A DNA stretch of 64,000 nucleotides from a candidate division FCPU426 bacterium (GCA_963771075.1 CAVYSE010000011.1:384001-448000); one strand, 5' to 3'. Positions 2,648-62,480 are shown, numbered from the stretch's first letter. Notes: generated from the letters alone by a model not told the origin. Numbers and translations are program-made.

Positions 2648-3967
2648 ATGAAATTACGAAGCGTGTTTTGGTGGTCTCTCAGCTTCTTCGGTTTGGCGGT
2701 CTTAGCCACCGCCCAAACCCCGGCAGCCCCTGTGGCGGCTGCGGCCCCGGCAGGGCCGGTGATCAGCGCGGGTGATACCGCGTGGGTTTTGGTTTCCACG
2801 GCCCTAGTCATGTTGATGACCCCGGGCTTGGGACTTTTCTACGGTGGGATGGTACGGCGCAAGAATGTGCTCTCCACCATCATGCAGAGCTTTTTTCTCG
2901 TCGCTCTAATCAGCATCCAGTGGGTGTTGTGGGGATATTCCACGTCCTTTTCACCGGGGACCGAATACATCGGGGGCTTGGGTTGGGCTTTCTTAAGGAA
3001 CATCGGCCCCGTCAGCTCGAATGCTCCGACCATCCCTCACCTGGCTTTCATCCTCTTCCAGGCCATGTTCGCGGTCATCACTCCCGCACTCATCACCGGC
3101 GCCTACGCCGAAAGGGTGAGCTTCAAGGGCTTTCTTCTCTTCTCCCTTCTCTGGGCCGCCCTGGTCTATGATCCCATCTGCCACTGGGTTTGGAGTAGTG
3201 GTGGGTGGTGGGCCAAGATGGGTGGTCTCGATTTCGCGGGGGGAGTGGTGGTTCACATCAGCGCCGGTTTTTCCGCACTGGCTTTAGCTCTACTCCTGGG
3301 AATACGTCGAGGGTACGGCAAGGAGACCATGGTGCCGCATAACATGACCATGGTCATCACCGGTACTGGCCTTTTGTGGTTCGGCTGGTTCGGGTTCAAC
3401 GCGGGCTCGGCCCTGGCTGCCAATAACGTGGCCTGCAGCGCTTTCCTGGCCACCAATACGGCGGGCGCCATGGCGACCCTGGTCTGGTGCCTGTTGGAAA
3501 GCATGCACCGCGGGAAGGCAACCACCCTGGGCGCAGCCTCGGGGGCCATCGCGGGATTGGCGGCGGTCACTCCCGCCTCGGGCTACGTGGATATGTGGGG
3601 CGCTCTTTGCATCGGCGCTATCGCCAGCCTGGTTTGCTACAGCGCGATCCTGGTGAAGATCAAGTGGGGCTATGACGACTCCCTGGACGCCTTTGGGGTA
3701 CACGGGGTCGGCGGGTTCTGGGGAACGCTGGCGGTGGGGCTTTGGGCCTGCCCGGCCGTGAACGGGAAGGCCGGTTGGTTTTATGGCAACTCGAACCAAT
3801 TTTTCATCCAACTGGGGATGGCCGGCGCGGCCGCGGTCTATTCATTGGGCGTGACCATGATCCTGTATCTCATCGTGGAAAAGACCGTGGGATTCCGGGC
3901 CCAGACCAAGGACGAGGACATGGGGCTGGACATCACCCAGCATGGTGAAGAGGGTTACAACTACTAA
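2648..3967 (+). CDS. amtB: Ammonium transporter Amt (copy 2)
   Basis: Same Amt motifs as copy 1 (DFAGGVVVH, FGVHG, GLDITQHGE). Confidence 0.97.
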   Translation: MKLRSVFWWSLSFFGLAVLATAQTPAAPVAAAAPAGPVISAGDTAWVLVSTALVMLMTPGLGLFYGGMVRRKNVLSTIMQSFFLVALISIQWVLWGYSTSFSPGTEYIGGLGWAFLRNIGPVSSNAPTIPHLAFILFQAMFAVITPALITGAYAERVSFKGFLLFSLLWAALVYDPICHWVWSSGGWWAKMGGLDFAGGVVVHISAGFSALALALLLGIRRGYGKETMVPHNMTMVITGTGLLWFGWFGFNAGSALAANNVACSAFLATNTAGAMATLVWCLLESMHRGKATTLGAASGAIAGLAAVTPASGYVDMWGALCIGAIASLVCYSAILVKIKWGYDDSLDAFGVHGVGGFWGTLAVGLWACPAVNGKAGWFYGNSNQFFIQLGMAGAAAVYSLGVTMILYLIVEKTVGFRAQTKDEDMGLDITQHGEEGYNY

Positions 3968-9402: not shown

Positions 9403-10761
9403 TTATTCGCCCAATTTTCTTAGGGTGTCGAATGAATAGAGCCCCGTGCCGTGGCCGTCTGACCACTGAAAGTGGAGGGCATAACGGCCCACCGGGTCCA
9501 CTCCCTCGATCTTTACGTCGGGGTCCACTGATTCCAAATTAATCATCCGCTGGCCCGTATCCTCGTTCACGCAGGAAGCGCAGGGGCACATGCTCCTCAA
9601 ATAACGGTTGGGATAGCGGGTAATCTTTCCATCGTCCCAAGTGATAACCGTGACCTTGTCGTCCTGGGTGTTTACTTCCTGGGGCCGGTTGGTGATCCGC
9701 GCCGTGGCGGCATTGATCAAGGAAAGTTGGGCCGCCATCTGAAGGGCGATGAGACCATAGGCTTTTCCGGAGGCCGAATCGGGATGGGCAGCCACAGTAG
9801 GAACTCCCGAGTCCCCATCCTCGGCGATCAAGGGTTCCAGGGGAACCTCCCCCAGGAAGGGAACAGCCAGTTCCTCCGCCATCCTTTTACCTCCGCCTTT
9901 CTTAAAGATGGGGGTAATCTCCTGGCAATGGGAACAAACGAAACCGCTCATGTTCTCCACGATGCCCAGAATCGGCACCTGAACCTGTTGAAACATACGC
10001 AACCCCTTCTGGGTGATATGCCGGGCCACGTCCTGGGGAGTCGTCACCAAGACGGCCCCCGCCAAGGGTACGGACTGGGTGAGGGTAAGTTGGATATCAC
10101 CGGTCCCCGGGGGAAGGTCAATCAAGAGGTAATCCAGGGCCCCCCATTCGACCCCCGCCAGGAACTGCTGAACCAGCTTGCTGGCCATGGGCCCCCGCCA
10201 GATAAGGGCGGTGTCGCTGTCCTGTTGGAGCATCCCCACGCTCATGAACTTGATGCCGTGCTTCTCGAACGGGATCATTTTCTTGGAAAGGGGGTCGGTA
10301 TCGGGCTGGCGACCCATCACCCCCAACATACGGGGAATGGAGGGGCCGTAAACGTCGGCGTCCATCAAACCGACGGCGGCACCGGTTTTGGCCAGGGCTA
10401 GCGCCAGGTTGGAGGAAACGGTGCTTTTACCCACCCCGCCCTTGCCCGAGGCGATGGCGATAAGGTTCTTCACCATGGGCATATTCAGGTTTTTGACGCC
10501 GGTAGGGGCCTGACGCACGTTGGAAGTCATTTTGACCTCCACCGAAGTGACACCGGGAAGCTTTTGAACGGCCGCTTGGGCCTGGGTCTTGAAAAGGTCC
10601 TTTACCGGGCAGGCGGGGGTGGTAAGTTCCAGGTCAAACCGGACCTTCCCCCCTTCGATAGCCAGGTTCTTCACGAAACCCAAGGACACGATGTCCTGGT
10701 GCAGGTCGGGGTCTTTGATGGGGCGAAGGGCGTTCAAAATATTCTGTTCGGATAGGCTCAT
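9403..10761 (-). CDS. apbC: Mrp/ApbC Fe-S carrier ATPase with N-terminal DUF59 and C-terminal DUF971-like domain
   Basis: DPDL..DIVSLGFV..TTPACP; SGKGGVGKST; DLPPGTGD; CSHC; C-terminal LRSMCPCASC...VGRYAL...WSDGH.TGLYSF. Start taken as MSLSEQ. Confidence 0.93.
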   Translation of the reverse strand: MSLSEQNILNALRPIKDPDLHQDIVSLGFVKNLAIEGGKVRFDLELTTPACPVKDLFKTQAQAAVQKLPGVTSVEVKMTSNVRQAPTGVKNLNMPMVKNLIAIASGKGGVGKSTVSSNLALALAKTGAAVGLMDADVYGPSIPRMLGVMGRQPDTDPLSKKMIPFEKHGIKFMSVGMLQQDSDTALIWRGPMASKLVQQFLAGVEWGALDYLLIDLPPGTGDIQLTLTQSVPLAGAVLVTTPQDVARHITQKGLRMFQQVQVPILGIVENMSGFVCSHCQEITPIFKKGGGKRMAEELAVPFLGEVPLEPLIAEDGDSGVPTVAAHPDSASGKAYGLIALQMAAQLSLINAATARITNRPQEVNTQDDKVTVITWDDGKITRYPNRYLRSMCPCASCVNEDTGQRMINLESVDPDVKIEGVDPVGRYALHFQWSDGHGTGLYSFDTLRKLGE

Positions 10762-10872
10762 GGGGTGGGGTCTCCTTGGGTTTATGTGAACCCATAAAAT
10801 GGGTTTTAAAATCCGAAAATGCAAGTTTCCTTTTAATAAAATTTTTTTCCCCCAATGGCACAACCCCGATCT

Positions 10873-11015
10873 CGCCATAGAGGCTCAGAGCCACAGAGAA
10901 AACATCCAAGATCAATGTTTAATTCTCGGCTTTAAAACCCCAAGGGTTCAATCCGACACTGAAAACTCAAAGTTCATTTTTTGTCGTTCTCTGCGCCTAT
11001 GTGACTTTGTGGTGG
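10873..11015. repeat. CACAGAG-type periodic inverted-repeat element
   Basis: cgccatagaggctcagagccacagagaaaa ... ttctctgcgcctatgtgactttgtggtg. Confidence 0.65.
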
Positions 11016-11183
11016 TTATTTAGTTAGCGCCGAACGTTCAATTTTCCCGTGAAAGCGGATAAAATAACCCCCGTCTTTCCTCCCTTAAAAAAGAGATCAC
11101 AGAAGAATGAATCACCCCTTTTCCCAATGGATGAGGGAAATTCGGTCCTTTTCACCGGACCCTCGAAAAGCAAAGGTCGCGTT

Positions 11184-13685
11184 ATGAAAGCCCTTATCCT
11201 GGCCGGTGGTTTCGGAACCCGCATGCGCCCACTCACCATCAACCTGCCCAAACCCATGATACCGATGGTCAACCGGCCCATTATGGAGATTATCGTGGAT
11301 CTGCTGAAAAAACATGGATTCACCGACCTCGTCAGCGTGGTGTTCTACCAGCCGGAAGTCATCACCGAATATTTCCGGGACGGCGCCGATTTCGGGGTGA
11401 AAATGCAGTACGAGGCTGCGGAAAGCGACCTGGGCACGGCGGGTTCGGTCAAGCATTGCCAGGGGTTGATCGAGAAAAAACGGTTTCTCATCATTTCGGG
11501 GGACGTCCTGACCGATTTCGACCTGACCGAGGCTCTCGCTTTCCATGAGAAGAACAAGGCCCAGGCCACCATGATCCTCACACGGGTCGAAAACCCCCTC
11601 GCCTTTGGGGTCGTCATCACCGGAGCGGACGGCAAGATCCAGCGTTTCCTGGAAAAGCCCACTTGGGGCGAGGTCTTTTCCGACACGGTCAACACGGGCA
11701 TTTATATCCTCGAGCCAGAGGTCCTGGACCTGATCCCGGATCGGGAGGATTTCGATTTCTCTAAGAATCTTTTCCCGCTCATGCTTCAAAAGGGTTTGCC
11801 GCTCTACGGTTACGTGGCCCAGGGTTATTGGGCCGATATCGGCAATCTGGACCAGTACCGACTGGCCCATCAGGATGTGTTCGCGGGCAAGGTGGAGGTC
11901 AGCATCCAGGGTTCCCGTTTGAACCGGGTGGGCAAGGAAATCTGGGCGGGGGAAAGAAGCTCCATCGATCCCACGGCGCAATTGACGGGAACGGTGGTGG
12001 TCGGCAGGGACTGCCACGTGGGGAAACATGTGAAGATCACCAACTCGGTCCTGGGCGACGGTTGCCAGATCGGGGAGGGCGCGGTCCTGACCAACGCGAT
12101 CCTTTGGCGCAACGTGGCCTTGGAGGCCGGGGCCCAGGTACGCGAGTGCGTGATCGCGTCCGGCGCCGACGTGCGCGAGAAGGCCAATATCTTCGAGGGT
12201 GTCATCGTCTCCGATAACTGTACCATCGGCCGGGAGGCCGTGATCAAGGCGGGCGTGAAGGTCTGGCCCAACAAGGTGGTGGAGGACGGAGCCCAGCTTT
12301 CCACCTCTCTCGTTTGGGGCGACAAGTGGTCCCGGTCGATTTTCGGGCAACATGGGGTCACCGGCATGGCCGGAATCGACATTACGCCGGAATTCGCGAG
12401 CAAGCTGGGAGCGGCCTACGGGGCTTCCCTTCCCAAAGGCTCCACGATCCTGACCGCGCGCGATATCCACAAGACCAGCCGCATGATCAACCGGGCTTTG
12501 ATTTCGGGCATCCTCTCCTCCGGTGTCAATGTGCACGACCTGCAGGAAATGCCCATTCCCGTGGCGCGCTACGCCGTGCCCAAGCTTTCCGACGCGGGGG
12601 GATTGCATACCCGCAAGAGCCCCTTCGATGAGCAATTCATTGACATCAAATTCTTCGATGGCCGGGGCCTGGCCCTTTCCTCCGGCAAGGAAAAGGGGAT
12701 CGAGAGCCTTTTTTACCGCGAGGATTTTCGTCGCGCCACCATGGAGGAAACCGGCGAACTGGTTTTTCCCCACCGCATGCTTGAGTTTTATCACCAGGGT
12801 TTCCTGGATGCCCTAGAGGTGAAAGCCATCGTGGACCACAAGCCCAAGGTAGTCATCGACTACGCCTTTTCGGCGGCTTCCCCCATCTTCCCATGGCTTT
12901 TGGGGAAACTGGGTTGCGAGGTGGTGGCCCTGAACGCCTACATGGATGAATCCAAGCTCACCAAAACCCCCGAGCAGTTTCAGGCCGCCCTGAAGCAGCT
13001 TTCCGACATCGTACCGACCCTCCACGCCCACTTTGGTGTATTGTTCGACGCGGGCGCGGAGAAGATTTTCGTGGTGGATGAGAAGGGGCATTTGCTGGCC
13101 GGAACCGAATTGCTGGCTCTGTTCTCCCTTTATATGTATCACCGAATTAAGGGGACGAAGACGGTGGTTCCCATCAACGCTTCCCAAGTTTTGGACGAAC
13201 TGGCCAAGGCCAACGGGGGGAGCATCCAGCGCACCCGCACGACCTATTATTCCCTTATGGAAGCGGCCACCCAGCCGGGCGTGTCCCTGGTGGGTGAACC
13301 GGACGGGGGCTTCATTTTCACCTCCTTCGCGCCCCACATGGACGCCATGATGTCCACTGCTAAACTAATGGAATTTCTAGCCCTGGAACGCAAGCCCATC
13401 TCCAGCTACCTCCAGCAGATCCCCAAGAAGCACGAAATCTCCCAGAAGGTTCCCTGCTCCTGGGAAATGAAGGGGACCATCATGCGGCACCTGATCGAAG
13501 ATACGGAAAAACTGCAGAGGGAACTGATCGATGGGGTCAAGATCCATCAGGAAGGATCTTCCGTCATGATCCTGCCCGACGCGGACTTAGCCTTCTTTCA
13601 CGTCACGGCCGAGGCAGAGACCGAGAAGACGGCGAAAGACTTAGTTGATTCCTACGTAGAGAAAATTAAAAAGTGGCATGGGTAA
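11184..13685 (+). CDS. Mannose-1-phosphate guanylyltransferase / phosphomannomutase-like fusion
   Basis: MKALILAGGFGTRMRPLT..PKPM, FLEKP, hexapeptide repeats, then a PGM/PMM fold with degenerate catalytic motifs. Confidence 0.9.
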   Translation: MKALILAGGFGTRMRPLTINLPKPMIPMVNRPIMEIIVDLLKKHGFTDLVSVVFYQPEVITEYFRDGADFGVKMQYEAAESDLGTAGSVKHCQGLIEKKRFLIISGDVLTDFDLTEALAFHEKNKAQATMILTRVENPLAFGVVITGADGKIQRFLEKPTWGEVFSDTVNTGIYILEPEVLDLIPDREDFDFSKNLFPLMLQKGLPLYGYVAQGYWADIGNLDQYRLAHQDVFAGKVEVSIQGSRLNRVGKEIWAGERSSIDPTAQLTGTVVVGRDCHVGKHVKITNSVLGDGCQIGEGAVLTNAILWRNVALEAGAQVRECVIASGADVREKANIFEGVIVSDNCTIGREAVIKAGVKVWPNKVVEDGAQLSTSLVWGDKWSRSIFGQHGVTGMAGIDITPEFASKLGAAYGASLPKGSTILTARDIHKTSRMINRALISGILSSGVNVHDLQEMPIPVARYAVPKLSDAGGLHTRKSPFDEQFIDIKFFDGRGLALSSGKEKGIESLFYREDFRRATMEETGELVFPHRMLEFYHQGFLDALEVKAIVDHKPKVVIDYAFSAASPIFPWLLGKLGCEVVALNAYMDESKLTKTPEQFQAALKQLSDIVPTLHAHFGVLFDAGAEKIFVVDEKGHLLAGTELLALFSLYMYHRIKGTKTVVPINASQVLDELAKANGGSIQRTRTTYYSLMEAATQPGVSLVGEPDGGFIFTSFAPHMDAMMSTAKLMEFLALERKPISSYLQQIPKKHEISQKVPCSWEMKGTIMRHLIEDTEKLQRELIDGVKIHQEGSSVMILPDADLAFFHVTAEAETEKTAKDLVDSYVEKIKKWHG

Positions 13686-52918: not shown

Positions 52919-52946
52919 GTAACTTAAATGCCGCTTGTTCCCTATA
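52919..52946 (+). promoter_or_regulatory. Autoregulatory ECF promoter
   Basis: GTAACT-N16-CCTATA directly before the ECF gene. Confidence 0.7.
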
Positions 52947-52967
52947 AATGTTCAGGAGCCAAGGCCT

Positions 52968-53531
52968 TTGGACTTCCAAGACGACCAATGGCAGGTTTGG
53001 ACCGCCTTGATGAAAAAAACCCAAGAAGGCGACCGGGAGGCTTACGAGCGTTTATTGGTGGGAATTAGCCCCCTGGTTTTCAATTACGTCCGAAAAAGGG
53101 TCTTTAATCCCCAGCACGTGGATGACATCTACCAGGAGGTGCTTTTAACCTTTCATAAGGCCAAACACACCTACCGGACGGACCTGCCCTTTTCGCCCTG
53201 GTTCTTCGCGGTCATCCGGAACGCCATCTGGGCCGCCTTGCAGAAGAACCGAAAGATCGCCCAGCGGGAATTTCCCCTGGAGGATTACCCTGAGATCGCC
53301 GTCCTTGAAACGGCCGAGGGGGGCGTGGATGACCGGCTTCACAAGGCTTTGGCATCCCTCCCGGCAGGCAACCGGCAGGCGGTGGAAATGCTCAAGTTCA
53401 GGGGCATGAGCGTGGAGGACGCGGCGAGGGAACTGGGCATCTCCAAGATCGCCCTCAAGGTGAGGGCCCACCGGGGCTATGCCCTTTTACGGAAGTTTTT
53501 GAAGGAACAACAGGATAAAGAGAATGAGTGA
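52968..53531 (+). CDS. ECF RNA polymerase sigma factor (SigF/ECF16-like)
   Basis: GDREAYERLL, DDIYQEVLL..H...HTY....PF.PWFFA..RN, K.RAHRG; TTG start after AGGAG. Confidence 0.92.
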   Translation: MDFQDDQWQVWTALMKKTQEGDREAYERLLVGISPLVFNYVRKRVFNPQHVDDIYQEVLLTFHKAKHTYRTDLPFSPWFFAVIRNAIWAALQKNRKIAQREFPLEDYPEIAVLETAEGGVDDRLHKALASLPAGNRQAVEMLKFRGMSVEDAARELGISKIALKVRAHRGYALLRKFLKEQQDKENE

Positions 53532-54216
53532 ATCCCAATCCCATACGATGGGCCCCACCCTCAGCGAGGCGCAAAGACGCCTTGTGGATCAGCTCGTGGC
53601 GGATCACAAACCCACCCCGCCCGCGCCTTCGGTCCTGCGCCAATGGCTGATCTGGCTGGTGTTTTCCCTGTTGGCGGTGGCCATCACCTTAAGCTTGATC
53701 GGCCCCCAGTTCGAGATCTGGGAAAGGCTCTCCGAGATATCCTCGGGCGGGTTCTTGGCCCTGGCTTTCGCGCTTTCAGCCTTCGCGGCATGGATGGGCA
53801 TCGCCTCGAGCATGCCGAACCACCGGGCCCATTGGGCGCCCCAAGCTTTCGCTGGGGTTTTGACCCTTTTTCTTTTCAGCATGCCCTTTATTTTCTTCCA
53901 ACCGGATTCCTTCGCCCAGGTGTGGGCCTTGAACCTGGAAGACGGTTGGTTTTGCGTGAGGACGGTGATCCTGGTGGCCCTGCCGACCTGGCTTTTACTG
54001 GGTTGGATGGCGTCCCGCAACGCGTCGTTCCACCCCGGATGGACCGGGGCTTGGCTGGGCGCGTCGGCTTTTTTGCTGGGGGCGGGAACCATCCAGCTTC
54101 ATTGCGCCCATTGGGAAACCTGCCATATGCTCGTGGACCATCTTATGCCGATGCTGGTCCTGATCTTCCTGCCGATTTGGATAGGGACCTATTGGTTTTC
54201 GAGGTGGAAGAAGTAG
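53524..54216 (+). CDS. NrsF/DUF1109-type membrane anti-sigma factor
   Basis: Overlaps the sigma stop; L.DQLVAD..P N-terminus, about 6 TM helices, two Cys (WFC, LHC) and a downstream His. Confidence 0.82.
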   Translation: MSESQSHTMGPTLSEAQRRLVDQLVADHKPTPPAPSVLRQWLIWLVFSLLAVAITLSLIGPQFEIWERLSEISSGGFLALAFALSAFAAWMGIASSMPNHRAHWAPQAFAGVLTLFLFSMPFIFFQPDSFAQVWALNLEDGWFCVRTVILVALPTWLLLGWMASRNASFHPGWTGAWLGASAFLLGAGTIQLHCAHWETCHMLVDHLMPMLVLIFLPIWIGTYWFSRWKK

Positions 54217-54219
54217 CTG

Positions 54220-55161
54220 TTAGTCTTGCGGTTTGATTAAATCCACATTCTTGCTGTCGACCACGATGGGGGTGAGTAACACCGCTTTCACAGTGGTTTC
54301 CCCGTTGGGCATTTCCGTAAACTGGCATTCAAACTGTTTGGCTTTGCGGGCCAACTTGGCCGAAAGATAGGCGGTTTCCTCGGCCAGCTTTTTGGGCGAG
54401 AGGAAAACCGTGATGGATTGTTTACCCGACTGGATTCGGCCCCAGGTGTCCCTGTCATCGCCCATTCCGGCGACAGCGGCAAATCCCGCCGCTTTTCTAA
54501 CCTCAACCGCTTCCCCCGCCAAGGCCGAATTGGAAGCCAAAATCGCATTAATGTTTGGGTCCGCGAGGGTATCCCGGTCCCTTGGGGTCAGGGTGGAGGA
54601 AGGATTCAGGGAAGAGGTGATCTGGATATCCCCCTTGTCGATGGAGGGTTGAAGGACCTTCATTTGGCCCTGGCGTAATTCCTTCTCGAATCCGCTTGAA
54701 GAACCTTCCCCCAAAAGGACGTAACGCCCTTTCGGTGCCAATTTCAGTAAGGACTGTGCCTGCAATTCACCCGCTTTTTCCCGGTTCAAGGCGATGAGGT
54801 AATCCAATCCGCAATTGGGGATGGGACTCCCCAAGGCGAGGACCTTGATCCCCGCATGATGGGCGGTTTCCACAAGGGGTACGGCTTTGGATGGGTCGCA
54901 GGGGATGATCACCAAGGCCTGGACGCCTTGTTGGATCAGGTCCCGGGCCTGGGTTTCCTGGACCGCCGGGTTCCCCTTCGCGTCCATGATAAGAAGGTCC
55001 GCTTCGTTGTCTTCCATCGATTCCTTCACCTCTTGGAGGAATACCTCCCGGCCCCTGCTGTCATCGAGCGAAAGGCCGATCTTCACCCGGGGCTCGTGAT
55101 GGCCCCAGCCGGTCAGGGAAAGAGCGACGACGCAAATAAAAGGGGTCAGAAACCACCGCAT
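54220..55161 (-). CDS. Orphan XylF-like periplasmic sugar-binding protein
   Basis: KIGLS, Q..Q...LI.QGV..LVI.P, G..QA..L, GQMKVL.P.ID.G.I, VLLTP..V. Confidence 0.8.
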   Translation of the reverse strand: MRWFLTPFICVVALSLTGWGHHEPRVKIGLSLDDSRGREVFLQEVKESMEDNEADLLIMDAKGNPAVQETQARDLIQQGVQALVIIPCDPSKAVPLVETAHHAGIKVLALGSPIPNCGLDYLIALNREKAGELQAQSLLKLAPKGRYVLLGEGSSSGFEKELRQGQMKVLQPSIDKGDIQITSSLNPSSTLTPRDRDTLADPNINAILASNSALAGEAVEVRKAAGFAAVAGMGDDRDTWGRIQSGKQSITVFLSPKKLAEETAYLSAKLARKAKQFECQFTEMPNGETTVKAVLLTPIVVDSKNVDLIKPQD

Positions 55162-55288
55162 GGAAACCTCAAGATAAAAAGGGATTGGATGCCGGCCATT
55201 AATTATAAGAAGGGCGGGGGATGGGTTTCAGGGAAAAAGGGTTCTGCGCCGGGTTGCGAAGGCAAACAATCAGCGCTAAAGTTTGGGC

Positions 55289-56047
55289 GTGAAAAGACCC
55301 TTTCTATTAGGCCCATTCCTCTTTTTCCTCATTTGCCTGGCCTGGCGACCCCTTTTCCTTCAAGCCCAGGAAGCAGATCCGGGCCTGATCCGCGCTTTGA
55401 ACACCGACTCCGCCTCGGTAGAGAACGCCTATTACCTGTGGGCCACGGTCGATAACGACTCCTCACCCTATCATTGGCTCTACCTGTACGGGGAAGGGGT
55501 CTTCGGACTGAACAAGGACTGGGGAATCGAATTGGACTTCCCGACTTTGGAAGATATCGATCCCCTGGGAACCTATCCCCTGGGGTTGGGGCCGGTCGGT
55601 TTGAACTTAAGGTATGAGGCCTATCGCTTCGGCAGTTGGAACAGCGAGACGGCGGGAGTGATTTCCTTTCAGGCGGGAGGGGCCTATGGACCGCCCAACC
55701 GCACCTACCGTTATATCGGAAGCAGTTGGACCCTAAAGGTTTTGGCTGGTTACAGGGTGGGAAAACTTTTCGCCCAGGGAAACTATGCTTTCCAGGGTGG
55801 CATCGACCCCCAATCCCTAAGCATGGCATCGGCTAATACGAGTTTGGGCTATGGCCTCGGTTCCAATTGGTATATCCAGGCGGAGGGGAATTTCTACGCC
55901 GTGACCGCCCCCTTCCATGATTCTTCCTGGACCTTTGTTCCCCAGCTTGCCTTTCAACCGGGGGACTGGCTGTTTGAGTTCGGGGAAGCTTTCAATGACG
56001 ATAATCCCACCGGAACCACTGAAATCTTAGCCGCCCGAACCTTTTAG
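55289..56047 (+). CDS. Putative outer-membrane beta-barrel protein
   Basis: Signal peptide, aromatic/Gly-rich alternating strands, terminal Phe. Confidence 0.65.
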   Translation: MKRPFLLGPFLFFLICLAWRPLFLQAQEADPGLIRALNTDSASVENAYYLWATVDNDSSPYHWLYLYGEGVFGLNKDWGIELDFPTLEDIDPLGTYPLGLGPVGLNLRYEAYRFGSWNSETAGVISFQAGGAYGPPNRTYRYIGSSWTLKVLAGYRVGKLFAQGNYAFQGGIDPQSLSMASANTSLGYGLGSNWYIQAEGNFYAVTAPFHDSSWTFVPQLAFQPGDWLFEFGEAFNDDNPTGTTEILAARTF

Positions 56048-56138
56048 CCCATTCCTTACCCGTCCCAAAGCGCCATAGCCCTTTATTTAACAGGGAAAAA
56101 GGGTCTTTCCGACCCTTTCGGAAATTTGACCTGATCCT

Positions 56139-56166
56139 GTAACCGCTTGGTCCCCCATCCCCTATT
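56139..56166 (+). promoter_or_regulatory. ECF promoter
   Basis: GTAACC-N16-CCTATT. Confidence 0.75.
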
Positions 56167-56200
56167 CATAAGAAATCCTTATATCGGTTGGGGGAGAAAC

Positions 56201-57021
56201 ATGAAAAAATTATTATTGGGTTTGATCCTGGCGTCGTTTGTTTTAACCGCATTAGCTTGTTCGCATAATTCCTATACCACGCCCTCAACGCCCAATTATA
56301 CGAACCCGACCAACACGCCTACTCCGGGCACTCCAACCAATACCCCGACGATTACCTCAACCCCTACGGTGACCCAATCGCCGACCATCACGGTCTCCCC
56401 GACCCAAACCACCTCGCCCACACCGACCAGCACCTTGACCCTTTCCTTTACTCCCACGGCCAGCTCAAGCCCTACCAATACATCATCGCCGACTTCCACC
56501 GCGACGATCACCCTGACCATGACCCCCACCCCCACTTCCACCCCGACGGATACGGCCACGATCACCGATAGCCCCACCGAAACCCTTTCTCCCACCCCGA
56601 CCTTGACATCTTCCTGGACCCCCACGGAAACATCCACGAACACCCCCACCTCGACCCGACGCCCACCGCCACTCCGACCACCGTGTCTTTCTCCACCACC
56701 CTATACCCCATCGTTTCCGCGAACTGTTTCAGCTGTCACGCCAACGGCTCGGCTTCGGGCGGGATGAACCTGGGCAATCCCGCCAGCGCATCCACCGTTT
56801 ACGCCACATGGGTTGGCACGGGTTCGGGCGGCACCGCCAGCACCACCAATAACTGCGGAATCGCCGATTACATCCTTCCCGGAAACCCAAGTTCCAGCCT
56901 GGTCCTCCAGAAATTGAACGGTTCCTGCTCACCCCAAATGCCCGACGGAGGACCCTTCCTCACTTCCGACCAGATCGCCGAGTTCACGAATTGGATCAAC
57001 GCGGGGGCGCCCAATAATTAG
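56201..57021 (+). CDS. Lipoprotein: Thr/Pro stalk plus monoheme cytochrome c (frameshift at 56655-56657)
   Basis: Lipobox ALAC; adding one C joins the TxT linker to the CFSCH...PGNP..SL..QKL...QMP...WI.AGA domain (planctomycete-type cytochrome c pattern). Confidence 0.82.
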
Positions 57022-57070
57022 TTTTCGGGCAAAAAGTCATTCGGCATTGGGATGATTTCCCTGAACTTTT

Positions 57071-57098
57071 GTAACCGCGCCCAGGCCTGAACCCAATT
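57071..57098 (+). promoter_or_regulatory. ECF promoter
   Basis: GTAACC-N16-CCAATT. Confidence 0.7.
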
Positions 57099-57152
57099 CG
57101 ATCGAGCAAGCCTTGTATCGGATTCTATCTGAGGTTTTTCTTGGAGGTGGTC

Positions 57153-58931
57153 GTGAATTTAAGGGGAGCTTTATACCTATCCCTATTGTTTTCAGGCGTC
57201 CTGTTTCTTTATTCCTGCACCCGTCCCATGTCGGTTTCACCCACCAGCCCCGCCATGCCCAAGACTCCCACCCTGACGGTCGCCGTCGGAAGCCTTTCTT
57301 CCACCTTTTCCCCCACCCTGGTCCTTACCCCTTCTTTCACCGGTACCGTGACGAACACCGTTACACCCGCCCCCTCCTCCACCCCTTCGTCTACCCTCAC
57401 CCTTAGTCCCAGTTCTTCCTATACCCCAACCCTGGCGCCAACTTCGACGCCTTCCCTTCAGCCCACTCCATCCTATACCGCTACTTGGGTGATGACCGTA
57501 ACGGATTCCCCGACCGCGGTTCCTACAACCATCTTTTCCGAAACTCCCACGGAAACCGCGACTTTGCCTTTCACCTCGACGGATTCCCCTACGCCCACGG
57601 TCACCTCGACGGCGACCCTGGTGAACACGCCGACGAATACCATGACCGCGACCGCTCCCGTCGCCTATTCGGATACACCCACACCGACCGAGACGATCAC
57701 CGACAGCTTTACCTTGACCGACACCCCGACCCTTTCACCGACTATTACGAACAGCCCCACCCTTTCGGATACTCCAACCCTGGTTTTCACTTCAACCGCC
57801 ACCCCTCAGCCTATCAACACCGCGACTGAGACCTGGACGAGTACGGTAGCAAATACTTTGACCCCTTCCGAAACATCAACTTTTTCCTTCACTCCGCTAT
57901 CCACTTCGACTCCCTCCCATACCCCGACCCAAACAGGGGTTTTCACGCCATCCGGTACGCCCACGGAGACTTTAACCATCACCGTGACCGTTAGCCCGGT
58001 GATGACCACGACCCTGACTTTGACGGCCTCACCGACCCCCACGGCATCACCTGGCGCCACCCGCACGGTGACACTCACTCCGACGGGAAGTTATACTCCG
58101 GTCTTTTCCGTTACGGCCACCCAGACCCTGACTTCCTCCCCTTCGCCAACCTATTCGGCCAGTGCCAGCCCAACCCCCACCAACAGCCTCACCCCGACCG
58201 TAAGCGGAACTCCCATCCCTTCCAATACGTCCACTCGAACCCAGACCTTGACGCCCTCCGCGACCCCTACTGCCAGTGAAAGCCCTACCCCCACCGGTAC
58301 CAACACCCCTACCCGGACCTTCACTTTAACCCCCACCCTATCCACTACCCCGAGTAATAGCCCTACCGCTACAAACACTTGGACCCTTACCACTACGGCA
58401 AGCATTACACCCACCGTTTCCAACTCGCCCACCCGGACGGTTTCCTTGACGCCGTCCCCGACAACCACGGCCAGTTTCAGCCCCACCGCGACCAAAACGA
58501 ATACTCCCGGCTCGACCGTGACCTCCACCGCCACACTTACGAACACTCCCACAGGGACGCCGACACCGACAGTCACGGTCACGCAGACGACTATTTCCTT
58601 CTCCCAAACCCTGTATCCGATCATTTCCACGTCTTGTTTTAGCTGCCACGCGAACGGGGCGGCGTCGGGGGGGATGAACCTGGGAAATCCCGCCAGCGCA
58701 TCGACCGTTTATGCGCTCTGGCTTGGCACGGGAACGGGGGGCACCGCTAGCACGACCAATAACTGCGGAATCGCCGACTACATCGTTCCCGGAAACCCCG
58801 CCTCCAGTCTGGTGCTTCAGAAATTGAACGGTACCTGCGCGCCCCAAATGCCGGATGGCGGGCCTTTTTTAACCACTGCCCAGATCGCCGAGTTCACCAA
58901 CTGGATCAATGCGGGCGCGCCTAATAATTAG
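57153..58931 (+). CDS. Lipoprotein: long Thr/Ser/Pro stalk plus monoheme cytochrome c
   Basis: GTG after GGAGG, lipobox LYSC, about 460-aa T/S/P linker, C-terminal CFSCH...QMP domain. Confidence 0.87.
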   Translation: MNLRGALYLSLLFSGVLFLYSCTRPMSVSPTSPAMPKTPTLTVAVGSLSSTFSPTLVLTPSFTGTVTNTVTPAPSSTPSSTLTLSPSSSYTPTLAPTSTPSLQPTPSYTATWVMTVTDSPTAVPTTIFSETPTETATLPFTSTDSPTPTVTSTATLVNTPTNTMTATAPVAYSDTPTPTETITDSFTLTDTPTLSPTITNSPTLSDTPTLVFTSTATPQPINTATETWTSTVANTLTPSETSTFSFTPLSTSTPSHTPTQTGVFTPSGTPTETLTITVTVSPVMTTTLTLTASPTPTASPGATRTVTLTPTGSYTPVFSVTATQTLTSSPSPTYSASASPTPTNSLTPTVSGTPIPSNTSTRTQTLTPSATPTASESPTPTGTNTPTRTFTLTPTLSTTPSNSPTATNTWTLTTTASITPTVSNSPTRTVSLTPSPTTTASFSPTATKTNTPGSTVTSTATLTNTPTGTPTPTVTVTQTTISFSQTLYPIISTSCFSCHANGAASGGMNLGNPASASTVYALWLGTGTGGTASTTNNCGIADYIVPGNPASSLVLQKLNGTCAPQMPDGGPFLTTAQIAEFTNWINAGAPNN

Positions 58932-59125
58932 CCTCCCATTCCCCTGAACCCGCTTCCCCTTTTTTAAGGATCTTCATGGCCGTTATCAAATAAACATGTC
59001 TATAAAATCCGTTGTGGCGCATGTTTATTTTTTGTTCGGGGCTAATCCACAATGGGGAAGCAAAGGCATTCAATCGTGTCGCCTTGGAATGGGGAGGGTC
59101 CTCCCACCTGCGTGCTTGAGAAACC

Positions 59126-60214
59126 TTAATAGAACAAAAAGGCGTCCGCCATCACCATGTCCTCGACCGGGCCCAAGAGGGCGTAATTGGGGTTGCTGGT
59201 GGAAGGGGCGGTGCGGGCCAGGTCGAGCTGAAATTTAAGGTTGTGCACCGGATAACAGCGGAAGCTAACCACGTGCCGGTAGCCCTCCGACGCGTTCGTG
59301 CCCATGGAATCCCACAGCCATTCGGTGGCCAGCCGCAGGTAACAGTCATACCCCAGGTCCCCTTCCGCGCTCAGGTGATAGGCCTGGATATTATCCTGGG
59401 TGTTTGAGGTCAATCCGTTATATCCCGCGTCGAACTCCGCCAGCAGGACCACCGGGGCGATCCGGCCCCAGCCATAGACCCCGTAACGGACCTGATCGGT
59501 GGTCAGGACCAGGTTTTCGGCGAAGAGGGAACCCGCCAGCGCCCATCCATCCCCGGTGACGCCCCCCTTCCCGGATAGGACCTTGCCGGAGGTGGCCTGG
59601 TCCCCGTTAAAGAAAGCCAGGTTCAGGAAGGCCGGGTCGGGGTAGATGCCCCCTTCCAAACCCTCGGCCGGATTGTTGTCGAAACTGAACCCTAAAGCGT
59701 TGCGGACCAGGCTGTTGTCATCGGCCAGTTCCAGGCCGTAGGGTACGGTGAATTTACCCACCTTCAAAAAGCCTCCGTCGGGCAGGCTCGTCCACAAGGC
59801 GTAGATCTCGCGCGTTTCCATGTCGTCCAAACGGTAAGTCAAGACGCCTGTCAGGTCCGGGTTGGCCTTCACCCCGACCTCCAGGGCCTGCCGGCCGCTG
59901 GAAAAACCATTTTGGTTCGGGGAGGGGGCCGCGTTAAAGGTGGAAAAGTAGGCCTCGTGGATATCCAAACCCACGGAGACCTGGGCAGGGATGAGCTTGG
60001 CCGCGTCCTGGGTGGCTTTATCCATTTCCTCCCAATCGAAGGTGGCCAGTTTGTTTCCGTAGTTTTTCCCGAATCCGTCGCGGAGCCATCCCCCCGTTTG
60101 GTTCACGTGGCAGGCGTTGCAGTTGACGCCCTTCCAGGCGGCGAAATAGGGCTCGGACCAACCGAGGGCAGGTCCTAAGACCAGAAATAAAAACGTTAGG
60201 TCTTTAAATTTCAT
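59126..60214 (-). CDS. Cyc2-like N-terminal monoheme cytochrome c / beta-barrel porin fusion
   Basis: Signal peptide, EPYFAAWKGVNCNACHVNQTGG, porin-like body (VGKF..PYG, amphipathic strands), ends AFLFY. Confidence 0.75.
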   Translation of the reverse strand: MKFKDLTFLFLVLGPALGWSEPYFAAWKGVNCNACHVNQTGGWLRDGFGKNYGNKLATFDWEEMDKATQDAAKLIPAQVSVGLDIHEAYFSTFNAAPSPNQNGFSSGRQALEVGVKANPDLTGVLTYRLDDMETREIYALWTSLPDGGFLKVGKFTVPYGLELADDNSLVRNALGFSFDNNPAEGLEGGIYPDPAFLNLAFFNGDQATSGKVLSGKGGVTGDGWALAGSLFAENLVLTTDQVRYGVYGWGRIAPVVLLAEFDAGYNGLTSNTQDNIQAYHLSAEGDLGYDCYLRLATEWLWDSMGTNASEGYRHVVSFRCYPVHNLKFQLDLARTAPSTSNPNYALLGPVEDMVMADAFLFY

Positions 60215-60291
60215 GAGACACTCCTTAAAAATAAATTAAAGCCCGAGTTTTCGGCGCCTTTGTACAAGGGATTTCATCCGAACCGGTTCTT

Positions 60292-60714
60292 TTAGTTGAC
60301 CAGGATGTTCCCGACCATTCCGGTGCAGGCGCCTCCCGGGCAGCCGGTCGCGCAGGAAGCGTGGTTGGAACAATGGAAGGAATAGGTCCCTGGGCTATTG
60401 AAGGTTTGGGTCACGGGAAAGGTCGTGTTTCCGCTGACGAGACAGGAAGTTCCATTGTCGATATAGAGGGGATGGAGGGCGCCCACATTGGAGGCGTCCC
60501 AAACCACGGATTGCCCATGGGTGATCGTTAGGGGAGCGCTTAGGGCGACCCCCGCGATGGAGTAGCGGTATCCGGAGGTGGTGGAGATGGCCCCTACCGT
60601 GCTGGCGATGACCGAGGATGGGGGAGCGGTTTGGGTGGGCGCTCCCACGTACTCGCAAGCGATGGATGTCAGGAGAATGGAAGACAACAAGCTTAAAAAG
60701 ATGGCTTTTTTCAT
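60292..60714 (-). CDS. Cupredoxin-like lipoprotein
   Basis: Lipobox SIAC, LTI..GQSV.W, HPLY, F.SPGTY.FHC..H...GM.G.I.V. Confidence 0.8.
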   Translation of the reverse strand: MKKAIFLSLLSSILLTSIACEYVGAPTQTAPPSSVIASTVGAISTTSGYRYSIAGVALSAPLTITHGQSVVWDASNVGALHPLYIDNGTSCLVSGNTTFPVTQTFNSPGTYSFHCSNHASCATGCPGGACTGMVGNILVN

Positions 60715-60754
60715 GGTCAAACACCTCACGCTGGATGGAAATGCTTTAATTTTG

Positions 60755-60782
60755 AATAGGGGTAGGGCGGGGCCGGGGTTAC
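60755..60782 (-). promoter_or_regulatory. ECF promoter (leftward)
   Basis: GTAACC-N16-CCTATT on the minus strand. Confidence 0.75.
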
Positions 60783-60812
60783 AGGATTAGGTCAATTAAT
60801 TTTCATTATTTA

Positions 60813-60840
60813 GTAACCCCGGGAGCCCTTTTCGGTTATT
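60813..60840 (+). promoter_or_regulatory. ECF promoter (rightward)
   Basis: GTAACC-N16-GTTATT. Confidence 0.7.
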
Positions 60841-60915
60841 GAGTTTTGGTACCTTGGTGAAATAGGACATGAGGTCCTGGGCGGGCCTGATATTACAGGG
60901 AGAAGAAGGTTAACC

Positions 60916-61389
60916 ATGCTTTATCGCCGTGTTCGGATAGCCCTGTTGCTGGCTTTCCCTTGGCTCTTCCTTTCTGTCGGCCTGGCCCATTCAACGGGCG
61001 ACCCAAAATTGGAATGGGCGATCCGGGAAATCGCGAAGGATTACCAGGCGAAGGTCGAGCCTTTGTTCCGGGAGAGCTGTTTTGACTGCCATTCCAGCTT
61101 CACCCGTTATCCCTGGTACCACCGCCTCCCGGTCATTCGGGGGATGATCGACGAGGATATCGCGCAAGCGCGGAAACATTTGGACATGTCCAATGGCTTT
61201 CCATTCCAGGGGGAGGTTAAACTGAAAAGCGGTCTGAAGGCCATCGCCTACCAGGTGGCCCAGGGAAAGATGCCCCTATTCCAATACCGTTGGATGCATC
61301 CGCGGAGCGCCTTGACGGATGGACAGAAGCAGGATATCGAGGATTGGGTGGATCGAAGCCTGGATCGCCTTGACCAGGCGGGGGAATAG
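60916..61389 (+). CDS. Secreted monoheme c protein (Haem-binding-domain type)
   Basis: SCFDCHS..T.YPWY, DI..AR.HL, GKMPL..Y..MHP...LT...K..I..W. Confidence 0.87.
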   Translation: MLYRRVRIALLLAFPWLFLSVGLAHSTGDPKLEWAIREIAKDYQAKVEPLFRESCFDCHSSFTRYPWYHRLPVIRGMIDEDIAQARKHLDMSNGFPFQGEVKLKSGLKAIAYQVAQGKMPLFQYRWMHPRSALTDGQKQDIEDWVDRSLDRLDQAGE

Positions 61390-61432
61390 GCCGAGAGCTG
61401 GAAAATGATGGGTTCAACTTAAGGGGGATTGC

Positions 61433-61855
61433 ATGAGAAAAACATTGTTCGCGTTAGGTTTGGCGGCGGCCGTGGCGGGGTTCACGGGCCTTTACGGGGG
61501 GGACATGGCGGGTATGGGGGCGGACACGGCTCCCGCCTCGAAGACCGTTACCGTGACCGGGACCCTGGTGGATGTGATGTGTTATTTGGAGGAAGGGGCG
61601 ACCGGCAATGACCACGACGGCATGAAGGCCTGCGGAACCGCCTGCCTAAAGGGCGGAAGCCCGGCGGGAGTGCTGGTGGGAAAGAAATTGTACAACCTGG
61701 CCTTTCCCGCGCCGGTCTTCATGGATTACGTGGGAATGACCGTCGAGTTCTCGGGGAAGGCCTATCTGGGCGACCAATTGATCCCGTCCAGGTTCTTTGT
61801 CATCAAGGACGGCAAGAAAACCGAGGTCAACATCAAGGGAAAGAGCATGATGTGA
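61433..61855 (+). CDS. Secreted small Cys/His/Met-rich protein
   Basis: Signal peptide; TG.LVDVMCY...H....CGTACLKGG.P.G pattern. Confidence 0.8.
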   Translation: MRKTLFALGLAAAVAGFTGLYGGDMAGMGADTAPASKTVTVTGTLVDVMCYLEEGATGNDHDGMKACGTACLKGGSPAGVLVGKKLYNLAFPAPVFMDYVGMTVEFSGKAYLGDQLIPSRFFVIKDGKKTEVNIKGKSMM

Positions 61856-61901
61856 GCCTGGACGCCCAACCGCCTCAAAAAGAATTGACCCCGGAGGTTC
61901 C

Positions 61902-62480
61902 GTGAGCAAGGGAAGGCTGGAGGCTTTCAGCGACGGGGTCATCGCGATCCTCATCACGATCATGGTGCTGGACCTGCGGGCGCCCCATGGGGCCGGGTGG
62001 ATGGACCTGAAGCCGGTCGTGCCCAACCTGATCGGCTATATCCTGAGTTTCGTCTTTTTGGGGATCTACTGGTCCAACCACCACCATCTTTTCCAGGCCG
62101 TTCAAAAGGTGAACGGCGCCATCCTGTGGGCGAACCTGCACCTCCTGTTCTGGCTTTCCCTCATTCCTTTCGTGACGAATTGGATGGGGAACACGGGTTT
62201 TACGGCCCTGCCGGTGTCCCTTTATGGCGTGGACCTTCTCTTCTCGGCACTGGCTTACTATATCCTGAACCTGGCACTGCTCGCCCGCCATGGGCCCCAA
62301 TCCGCCTTGGCCAAGGCGATCGGTAACCAGAAGAAGGAATACCTTTCGCTTTTCCTTTACTTAGCGGCAATTCCCTTTTCCTTCGTCGAATCCTGGATCG
62401 CTTACGGCCTTTATATCGCGGTCGCCGTCATGTGGCTGGTACCGGACCGGAGGATCGAAAATGCGCTGGAGGGGCTTTGA
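61902..62480 (+). CDS. TMEM175-family (DUF1211) potassium channel
   Basis: RLEAFSDGVIAILITIMVL, YWSNHH, PFVT.WMG. Confidence 0.92.
   Translation: MSKGRLEAFSDGVIAILITIMVLDLRAPHGAGWMDLKPVVPNLIGYILSFVFLGIYWSNHHHLFQAVQKVNGAILWANLHLLFWLSLIPFVTNWMGNTGFTALPVSLYGVDLLFSALAYYILNLALLARHGPQSALAKAIGNQKKEYLSLFLYLAAIPFSFVESWIAYGLYIAVAVMWLVPDRRIENALEGL

Follow-up and report, generated by a model that had tools for sequence, protein, structure and literature searches.

Extracytoplasmic function (ECF) sigma factors of the SigF/NrsF type (Caulobacter, Bradyrhizobium, Azospira; EcfF/OsrA) are encoded by genes which are overlapped by the gene of a multi-pass anti-sigma factor of the DUF1109/NrsF type. The anti-sigma factor has two conserved cysteines 50 residues apart, the promoters consist of a -35 element GTAAC(C) followed after a spacer of 16 nucleotides by the -10 hexamer, and the sigma factor controls its own gene and a small regulon beside the regulator, often divergently arranged. 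For Caulobacter the promoter sequence GTAACC-N16-CGAA was shown experimentally and C131/C181 replacement in NrsF was found to de-repress the regulon (Kohler 2012, PMC3511200, accessible part of the text). We have analyzed a locus of this kind in a 64-kb stretch of DNA from a candidate division FCPU426 bacterium (GCA_963771075.1 CAVYSE010000011.1:384001-448000; this whole stretch is called the window and coordinates refer to it). Here an ECF sigma factor gene (sigma1), an nrsF gene and five copies of a bipartite promoter motif are found together with genes for a heme-bearing porin, a cupredoxin and stalked c-type cytochromes.

The features of the SigF/NrsF systems recur in the window, where autoregulation of sigma1 is suggested by a conserved site upstream of its own gene. 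The -10 element, in contrast, reads CTAT or CTAG and sometimes ATAG, whereas the known systems have CGAA. Furthermore the predicted regulon consists of extracytoplasmic redox carriers and not of MsrP/YedYZ, MrpX, bufferins and sulfur-metabolism genes, and unlike in the known systems a genome of the lineage has at least two or three paralogous pairs, whose -10 elements have diverged.

The other described systems which the locus resembles are the fused cytochrome-porins such as Cyc2 of Acidithiobacillus and of neutrophilic iron oxidisers, the main genomic marker of microbial iron oxidation. Like Cyc2, the porin encoded in the window (heme-porin) has a signal peptide, a single N-terminal CXXCH motif, a predicted 16-strand barrel resembling OprP/OprO and the sequence A-x-P-x-F-A before the heme motif, and as in the rus operon of Acidithiobacillus (Cyc2/rusticyanin/Cyc1) its gene stands beside those of a cupredoxin and monoheme c-type cytochromes. 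The Acidithiobacillus chain is described in the accessible part of a 2026 review on iron oxidation (PMC13741234). Unlike Cyc2, the heme-porin is without R-[QK]-[TY] and PXL and has instead the signature EPY...C..CH.N..GG..R, and unlike the Cyc2 system the operon contains no oxidase genes and appears to be under ECF sigma control. A preliminary description of the stretch had not recognised this combination of genes; it does resemble the Cyc2/rusticyanin/Cyc1 layout, with a porin which we read as a Cyc2-like fused cytochrome-porin. In the literature that we examined we met with no regulator of such a fused cytochrome-porin pathway. The term "sigma factor" does not occur in the accessible text of the review just mentioned, and in a literature search pairing Cyc2 with ECF sigma or anti-sigma factors Cyc2 was absent among the matches listed.

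The promoter motif and its probable sigma factor

The promoters and the genes to which they are assigned are the following:

52919..52946 (+), predicted autoregulatory ECF promoter of the sigma-nrsF operon, GTAACT-N16-CCTATA
52968..53531 (+), ECF sigma factor sigma1; the open reading frame (ORF) opens at 52935, likely start TTG 52968 after AGGAG
53524..54216 (+), NrsF-type membrane anti-sigma factor, overlapping the end of the sigma1 gene by 8 nucleotides
56139..56166 (+), predicted ECF promoter of stalked cytochrome 1, GTAACC-N16-CCTATT
56201..57021 (+), lipoprotein c-type cytochrome 1 with lipobox, Pro/Thr-rich linker of about 130 amino acids and C-terminal monoheme domain; frameshifted at about 56656
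57071..57098 (+), predicted ECF promoter of stalked cytochrome 2, GTAACC-N16-CCAATT, with a weaker -10 element
57141..58931 (+), lipoprotein c-type cytochrome 2 with lipobox, Pro/Thr-rich linker of about 440 amino acids and C-terminal monoheme domain; likely start GTG 57154
59126..60214 (-), fused monoheme cytochrome-porin of Cyc2-like architecture (heme-porin), signal peptide and CNACH, 362 amino acids
60292..60729 (-), plastocyanin-like cupredoxin whose ligand loop contains a Cys-rich insertion; likely start ATG 60714
60782..60755 (-), predicted ECF promoter of the cupredoxin/heme-porin operon, GTAACC-N16-CCTATT
60813..60840 (+), candidate ECF promoter of a heme-binding unit, GTAACC-N16-GTTATT; the least supported site

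The preliminary description had reported five bipartite sites with a 16-nucleotide spacer, and all five were found again with the positions and sequences listed here. Each lies outside ORFs of at least 100 amino acids and upstream of an ORF on the same strand, with 22-76 nucleotides between the end of the motif and the likely start codon. The pattern GTAACY-N16-SYWATW has five matches in the window compared to a mean of 0.13 (standard deviation 0.37) in 100 dinucleotide-preserving shuffles, none of which (0/100) reached five matches. The complete 4.39-Mb genome has 17 matches to the pattern with the 16-nucleotide spacer, and five of these 17 cluster within one 8-kb stretch, the locus itself. 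With spacers of 12-15 and 17-20 nucleotides we counted 9, 9, 12, 7, 4, 8, 11 and 9 occurrences in the genome; the excess of the pattern is confined to the 16-nucleotide spacer.

This pattern was written down after the sites had been seen, and we therefore used as an independent test a position matrix built exclusively from 14 sites in relatives, the window sites being excluded. When all 8.8 million positions of the genome were scored with this matrix, the sites at 60782 (-), 56139 (+) and 52919 (+) came out as ranks 1, 2 and 3 with 27.8, 24.9 and 22.2 bits, respectively, and the match on rank 4 (19.5 bits) is located inside an ORF of 667 amino acids. The genome-wide scan that the preliminary description had proposed thus places three sites of the window at the top of the whole genome. 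A chance origin of the motif was rejected on the basis of the window shuffles, the genomic spacer counts and the matrix ranks, and an origin from a dispersed repeat because the five spacers are mutually dissimilar. A general scan of the region for sigma-70 promoters and terminators was uninformative (5 promoter-like elements with 4.6 expected, 7 terminator-like elements with 17.8 expected).

We then compared the locus with those of relatives (L numbers designate relatives' loci, G numbers relatives' genomes; G000 is the genome of the window). The strict GTAACY-N16-SYWATW-type pattern gave only one site in 16 relatives' loci, because the conserved core is GTAAC-N18-CTA. In the same loci GTAAC and CTA are found 18 times at a distance of 18 nucleotides as opposed to 2, 2, 4 and 4 times at 16, 17, 19 and 20 nucleotides. 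Each of seven aligned regions upstream of sigma genes contains the core (7/7), and a motif of the GTAAC-N18-CTA/ATA type precedes all 13 sigma1-like genes (the window and 12 further ones) at the same distance. It is also found upstream of the heme-porin/cupredoxin operon in 8/8 loci in which this operon adjoins sigma1 (L015-L020, L023, L037). In L023 and L037, where ATAG replaces CTAG, the motif stands directly upstream of the heme-porin gene and a further one upstream of the divergent cytochrome/cupredoxin operon. A small cytochrome of the same genus is preceded by GTAACC-N16-TCTATG (L017), and in G018 the motif lies upstream of a Pro/Thr-stalked cupredoxin; in this genome, which is 89% complete, the heme-porin was not found. 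The targets are linked to sigma1, often via a divergent intergenic region, in at least five genera. Genes and motif co-occur in relatives, a check which the preliminary description had proposed, and an autoregulated regulon predicts just such a motif, conserved in several genera, before the sigma gene and before the heme-porin, cupredoxin and cytochrome genes.

The heme-porin gene itself was detected in 19/24 genomes of the same family and in the one genome of the sister family (1/1), and in none of the 15 genomes (0/15) searched from other families of the phylum; NrsF is present in 20/24 genomes of the same family. The block of sigma, nrsF, binding protein, OMP254 (the latter two are described below), heme-porin and cupredoxin genes recurs in rearranged form in three genomes of the same genus (L015-L017), in G012, G004, G020 and G015 and in L037. 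L031 has only a near-match to the motif with a spacer shorter by one base.

The sigma1 protein matches Sigma70_r2 (6.2e-11) and Sigma70_r4_2 (1.7e-10) of Pfam as well as TIGR02937 (3.6e-21), all above the cut-off. Since relatives keep both the N-terminal LDFxDDQW and the AGGAG before it, TTG 52968 is the probable start codon. The sigma1-type system presumably carries the group label ECF16. The anti-sigma factor matches NrsF (PF06532) with an E-value of 7.8e-17 and 62.2 bits (cut-off 26.8) over profile positions 1-202 of 204. These matches and the overlap of the two genes agree with the SigF/NrsF-type pair that had been described, and the two cysteines which had been noted in the anti-sigma factor are C144 and C194. 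According to the alignment both are near-invariant (86/87 homologues each), and C200 is present in 63/87 homologues. Hydropathy analysis of NrsF gave five strong hydrophobic segments and one weaker segment; C144 and C194 are positioned at the ends of segments 4 and 6 and would face the periplasm. The distance of 50 residues between them equals that of C131 and C181 in the Caulobacter protein, a correspondence that is suggested by the spacing.

The genome harbors a second ECF sigma/NrsF pair (sigma2; contig C25:48117-49402, L014) which is 53-54% identical to the sigma factor of the window and preceded by GTAAC-N17-CGTAGA. Just upstream of this pair there is a gene for a protein of 244 amino acids which we take to be of the chlorite-dismutase/HemQ type. 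In a tree of 38 NrsF-linked sigma genes from the family, sigma1 falls into a clade of 12 members including the window sigma (support 100/99) and sigma2 into another clade of 12 members (support 92/95). At position 19 after GTAAC the promoters of the sigma1 clade's own genes have C in 11/12 rows and G in 1/12; the sigma2 clade has G in 10/12, and in the remaining 2/12 the motif was not found. In a further clade of six NrsF-linked sigma factors no GTAAC motif was found. The -35 element is thus of the SigF type GTAAC, and as the preliminary description had remarked the -10 element is unlike CGAA, which is absent: the sigma1 clade carries C-T-A-T/G and the sigma2 clade CGTA, which is closer to CGAA. 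The lineage appears to hold several SigF/NrsF pairs with a common -35 and different -10 elements, and such paralogous ECF sigma factors may be kept apart by a single position of the -10 element. A gene for a secreted MsrA (G000 contig C28:234730, L044/L046; L047-L059) has GTAAC-N16/17-CGTA(T/A/C) upstream in 11/14 loci and probably belongs to the sigma2 regulon, in agreement with the genes described for SigF regulons.

A small secreted protein with the metal-binding motif CPMG...CPNC (C28:65667, L045/L104; L105-L107) is also preceded by a GTAACT-type promoter in 4/4 genomes of the genus, with -10 elements varying between CTTATA, CATATA and CGAATG; the GTAACT-type motif is absent in four other genera. 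The gene before it presumably codes for a resistance-nodulation-division (RND) efflux pump, judging from the look of the C-terminus.

The heme-porin and its neighbouring redox carriers

The heme-porin begins with a signal-like N-terminus followed by a single CNACH at residues 32-36. It has no match in Pfam or NCBIfam, and a word-based search gave 77 relatives, all annotated at most as hypothetical protein. With a profile built from 20 relatives, 1963 cluster representatives were found at E<=0.001 and 292 at E<=1e-30. An AlphaFold model of the protein has a mean predicted local distance difference test score (pLDDT) of 70, a predicted template modelling score (pTM) of 0.69 and a pLDDT of 70-87 in the barrel. 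The model contains 17 strand elements of which two form one split strand, hence a predicted barrel of about 16 strands. The top Foldseek match of the model is OprP (2o4v, E 5.7e-13, TM score 0.64), and OprO (4rjw) ranks fourth; these two are described as the structures closest to the Cyc2 porin in the accessible part of PMC8406198.

According to the same part of that source, a Cyc2 protein has AXPXFAR[Q/K][T/Y] before CXXCH and PXL four residues behind this heme motif, and it measures 365 amino acids or more. The heme region of the heme-porin reads SEPYFAAWKGVN-CNACH-VNQTGGWL. In front of the heme site, (S/A)EPYFAAWK keeps the A/S-x-P-x-F-A part, and R-[QK]-[TY] is missing; the sequence VNQTGGWL after CNACH is without PXL, and the length is 362 amino acids compared with the 365 amino acids of the published filter. 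We checked the motifs in 146 further matches among the best 150 of the 1963 profile matches. Eleven of the 146 have no CXXCH within the first 140 residues, and among the 135 heme-bearing ones none (0/135) carries the Cyc2 sequence P.FAR[QK][TY] or PXL; in 126/135 the heme site is followed by x-[NS]-x-x-G-G. The signature EPY...C..CH.N..GG..R is invariant in the alignment of 20 sequences. In its modelled architecture the heme-porin resembles Cyc2, and we assign it to a distinct, as yet unnamed sister family. Published screens would reject this family, leaving many possible outer-membrane redox proteins uncounted.

The cupredoxin is probably co-transcribed with the heme-porin. Database matches are weak (a plastocyanin in the PDB with E 0.04, halocyanin/plastocyanin in NCBIfam with E 0.003, below cut-off), and the pattern of His, Cys-x2-His and Met, ligand-like by sequence, is kept in eight homologue sequences. 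The protein has Y-x-F-H-C-x-x-H ... G-M-V-G-x-I-x-V-N and an upstream His, which by sequence resemble the type-1 copper ligand set of plastocyanin-type cupredoxins. Unlike in plastocyanins, 12-13 Cys-rich residues are inserted between the putative His and Met ligands, and in some relatives the domain is fused to a long Pro/Thr-rich stalk of a lipoprotein or to a large protein. The insertion brings in three to four extra cysteines, as in H-ASCATGCPGGACTG-M, and its outline is kept across genera; these cysteines could form disulfides or a second metal site. In one genus (L019/L020 of G004 and G020; about 9764-12072) the gene between promoter and heme-porin codes for a protein of 623-747 amino acids, in which the cupredoxin is only the C-terminal domain.

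In the assembly the gene of stalked cytochrome 1 is split into the ORFs 56147-56767 and 56683-57021. In contigs of two other metagenome runs (X1 and X4, 95-99% alike) the frames are joined by an additional base behind 56656, and the run most like the window (X2) has no coverage at 56656. The frameshift would therefore be due to an error of the assembly or else to a break that is recent and specific to the strain. The protein has CFSCH and Q-M-P, and its matches to Cytochrome_CBB3 (20 bits) and PSCyt1 (19.9 bits) are both below cut-off; matches of the stalked cytochromes in the PDB all have E >0.3. The C-terminal domains of cytochromes 1 and 2 are homologous to each other and recur beside heme-porins, including those of metagenome-assembled genomes of Gammaproteobacteria (two loci). 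In 11/16 relatives' loci a cupredoxin or cytochrome of these types is found near the heme-porin by tblastn, as well as in L030 by eye, and the same is true for both loci of Gammaproteobacteria (2/2). Next to the heme-porin of these two loci (L042, L043) tblastn found neither NrsF nor a sigma factor. Of the gene content given in the preliminary description, the four proteins with CXXCH, the copper protein (cupredoxin-like) and the Cys-rich protein (3-Cys protein) were found again; an amendment is needed for the first stalked cytochrome, which is frameshifted in the assembly.

A possible electron path and its alternatives

On balance we favour, at slightly better than even chances, the reading that sigma1 recognizes the promoters of the heme-porin, cupredoxin and cytochrome genes and that the products form a Cyc2-like electron path between outer membrane and periplasm. 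By analogy with the SigF/NrsF pairs of Caulobacter and Azospira, NrsF would hold sigma1 at the membrane until a thiol-reactive periplasmic signal (copper, cadmium, chromate or chlorine oxidants) hits its two cysteines and sigma1 is released, and the freed sigma factor would raise expression of its own operon and of the redox module. A dissolved reduced metal, with Fe(II) or Cu(I) as the most likely candidates, would then give electrons to the heme-porin at the cell surface, and these electrons would travel via the cupredoxin and the tethered cytochromes to one of the terminal oxidases of the genome (two COX1-family oxidases and a cytochrome bd). The response would thereby remove reactive reduced metal outside the cytoplasm. 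We favour an inward flow since the gene set mirrors the Cyc2/rusticyanin/Cyc1 chain and the genome has heme-copper and bd oxidases. Substrate and direction of flow, which are suggested by architecture and recurrent gene adjacency, are the least certain steps. If this reading is true, SigF/NrsF control would widen from repair and chelation to electron transfer, and the short, portable promoter of the sigma/anti-sigma pair would offer a direct experimental handle on such systems. Going further, one could propose that the members of the Cyc2 sister family, which has about 2,000 cluster representatives across bacteria, are metal oxidases of the outer membrane, one of which has been wired in this candidate-phylum lineage to a dedicated thiol-switch SigF/NrsF paralogue with a -10 element shifted from CG(A/T)A to CTAT, making an inducible, stress-gated chain of extracellular Fe(II)/Cu(I) oxidation that includes the stalked lipoprotein cytochromes; this wider proposal is speculative and in our estimate rather doubtful.

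A number of findings speak against the favoured reading. With the relatives-only matrix the sites at 57071 and 60813 score below 12 bits, because their -10 elements read CAA or TTA and not CTA; site 57071 is in addition not fully independent, since it precedes a tandem paralogue of cytochrome 1. The motif is absent from all heme-porin loci without adjacent sigma gene (9/9; L021, L022, L024-L030), so that the link between sigma factor and heme-porin is clade-specific, and in G008, G009 and G023 the sigma1-like gene lies elsewhere and the heme-porin has no upstream motif. The heme-binding unit behind site 60813, which the preliminary description had counted as a member of the regulon, is the least supported member and looks like an accessory insertion: in G015 the Haem_bd protein and the Cys-rich protein (61% and 64% identity) are encoded in another operon without the motif. 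The known SigF regulons contain repair and chelation genes (MsrP/YedY, MrpX, bufferins) and not electron-transfer chains, and the Caulobacter bufferin reporters are induced by Cu2+ and not by Fe2+, in each case as far as the accessible text of the sources goes (PMC11626156 and PMC4436054 for the regulons, PMC11626156 for the reporters). Finally, the heme-porin departs from the published Cyc2 sequence criteria, so that Fe(II) oxidase activity is not transferable to it by family membership, the heme domain of its model has a pLDDT below 50, the promoter of the genome's second SigF/NrsF pair differs mainly at one position, which makes cross-recognition possible, and a member of the sigma1 clade in G018 has a GTAT -10 element.

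In one alternative the regulon is unchanged, and the module exports electrons or has a protective role only. Respiratory electrons would then pass via the cytochromes, the cupredoxin and the heme-porin to chromate, chlorine oxidants or peroxide, which would be reduced at or beyond the outer membrane, or else the module would be a detoxifier resembling a cuprous oxidase, without gain of energy. In the accessible text of the sources the characterized SigF/NrsF systems answer to chromate, cadmium, copper and reactive chlorine species and protect the periplasm (PMC3511200, PMC11626156, PMC4436054). Other GTAAC-type promoters precede the secreted MsrA and, in the genus, the small metal-binding CxxC protein, and the long Pro/Thr stalks of the two cytochromes would suit a reach across or beyond the envelope. 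However, the functionally tested fused cytochrome-porins in the literature examined are Fe(II) oxidases with inward flow (PMC8406198, PMC13741234, accessible parts), the set of monoheme porin, cupredoxin and class-I-type cytochrome mirrors the inward Cyc2/rusticyanin/Cyc1 chain, and no quinol dehydrogenase is encoded in the locus. We consider an outward or protective function unlikely, yet the main competitor.

A different objection concerns the regulator. Owing to the second pair with its similar promoter we infer which sigma factor reads which site, and the ECF promoters could be read wholly or partly by sigma2, or by both, in which case sigma1 would not be a dedicated regulator. The -35 element GTAAC is common to both, the TA of the -10 element stands in the same register (GTAAC-N17-C-G-TA and GTAAC-N17-x-C-TA), the sigma1-like system of G018 with its GTAT would fit, and the sites at 57071 and 60813 agree well with neither consensus. 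We nevertheless think that such a role of sigma2 is improbable: position 19 tracks the clade, the three strongest targets in the window carry the sigma1-type CTAT, in at least five genera the target genes stand close to that of sigma1, and the msrA promoters have the sigma2-type CGTA. It would be more improbable still that there is no electron-transfer chain at all, the porin being a heme-decorated diffusion channel or a sensor, the cupredoxin and the cytochromes serving unrelated periplasmic chemistry and the promoter belonging to a general envelope-stress regulon. The deviation from the Cyc2 motifs and the poorly modelled heme domain would be in line with this, as would the presence in the locus of a K+ channel and a binding protein without redox role. 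But CXXCH and the motif around it are invariant in the 20-sequence alignment and kept in the wider family among the matches listed, and even in Gammaproteobacteria small redox carriers are again encoded beside the heme-porin.

Accessory genes and further observations

The remaining genes between the sigma-nrsF operon and the end of the locus are:

54220..55161 (-), periplasmic binding protein of the Peripla_BP_4 type, without ECF motif
55283..56047 (+), OMP254, a protein of 254 amino acids ending in Phe, start codon uncertain
60916..61389 (+), Haem_bd protein (PF14376, 2e-28, 99.2 bits with a cut-off of 27)
61433..61855 (+), 3-Cys secreted protein
61902..62480 (+), TMEM175-type K+ channel (PF06736, 5e-31)

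No transporter accompanies the binding protein, whose gene is syntenic with sigma1-nrsF in L015-L020, L023, L037, L100 and L102. OMP254 is possibly a small outer-membrane barrel. Its gene is preceded by a sigma-70-like element (TTGCGA-N17-TAAAGT at 55254-55282), and TTGCG-N17-TAAAGT is kept upstream of the gene in four relatives. Neither OMP254 nor the binding protein was retained as an ECF target, since the motif is absent before both genes and OMP254 has the sigma-70-like element. The two genes stay beside sigma1-nrsF in the loci of 10 relatives, and their products may be part of the signal input.

The Haem_bd, 3-Cys and TMEM175 genes possibly form an accessory operon. In genomes of the same genus the matches to the heme-binding unit do not exceed 29% identity. 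The -10 sequence GTTATT of site 60813 is also found at one sigma1-like autoregulatory site (L083). Like the heme-porin, OMP254 and the 3-Cys protein have no match in Pfam or NCBIfam, and a sequence search of the PDB with the 3-Cys protein was without match. An Atlas search with these three proteins led to unnamed clusters only, with one lead to DUF5818 (31% share). The iron superoxide dismutase gene, which had been brought into connection with the regulon because it lies adjacent, was ruled out as a sigma1 target by a motif search: there is no GTAAC motif in the 250 nucleotides upstream.

In L103 (G009:C92, about 3409-3911) the sequence GTAAC-N18-GTATT is located downstream of a sigma1-like pair and precedes the gene of a secreted Cys/His-rich protein of 141 amino acids. 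Its VxCxxC...H..CA style recalls the 3-Cys protein of the window, to which tblastn gave no similarity. A TMEM175-type K+ channel gene is also present in the cluster of L037 (7393-7791), between nrsF and the gene of the binding protein. Elsewhere in the genome of the window, contig C15:40032-40721 has a match to the RuBisCO large-subunit family (E 2.8e-34, 119 bits).

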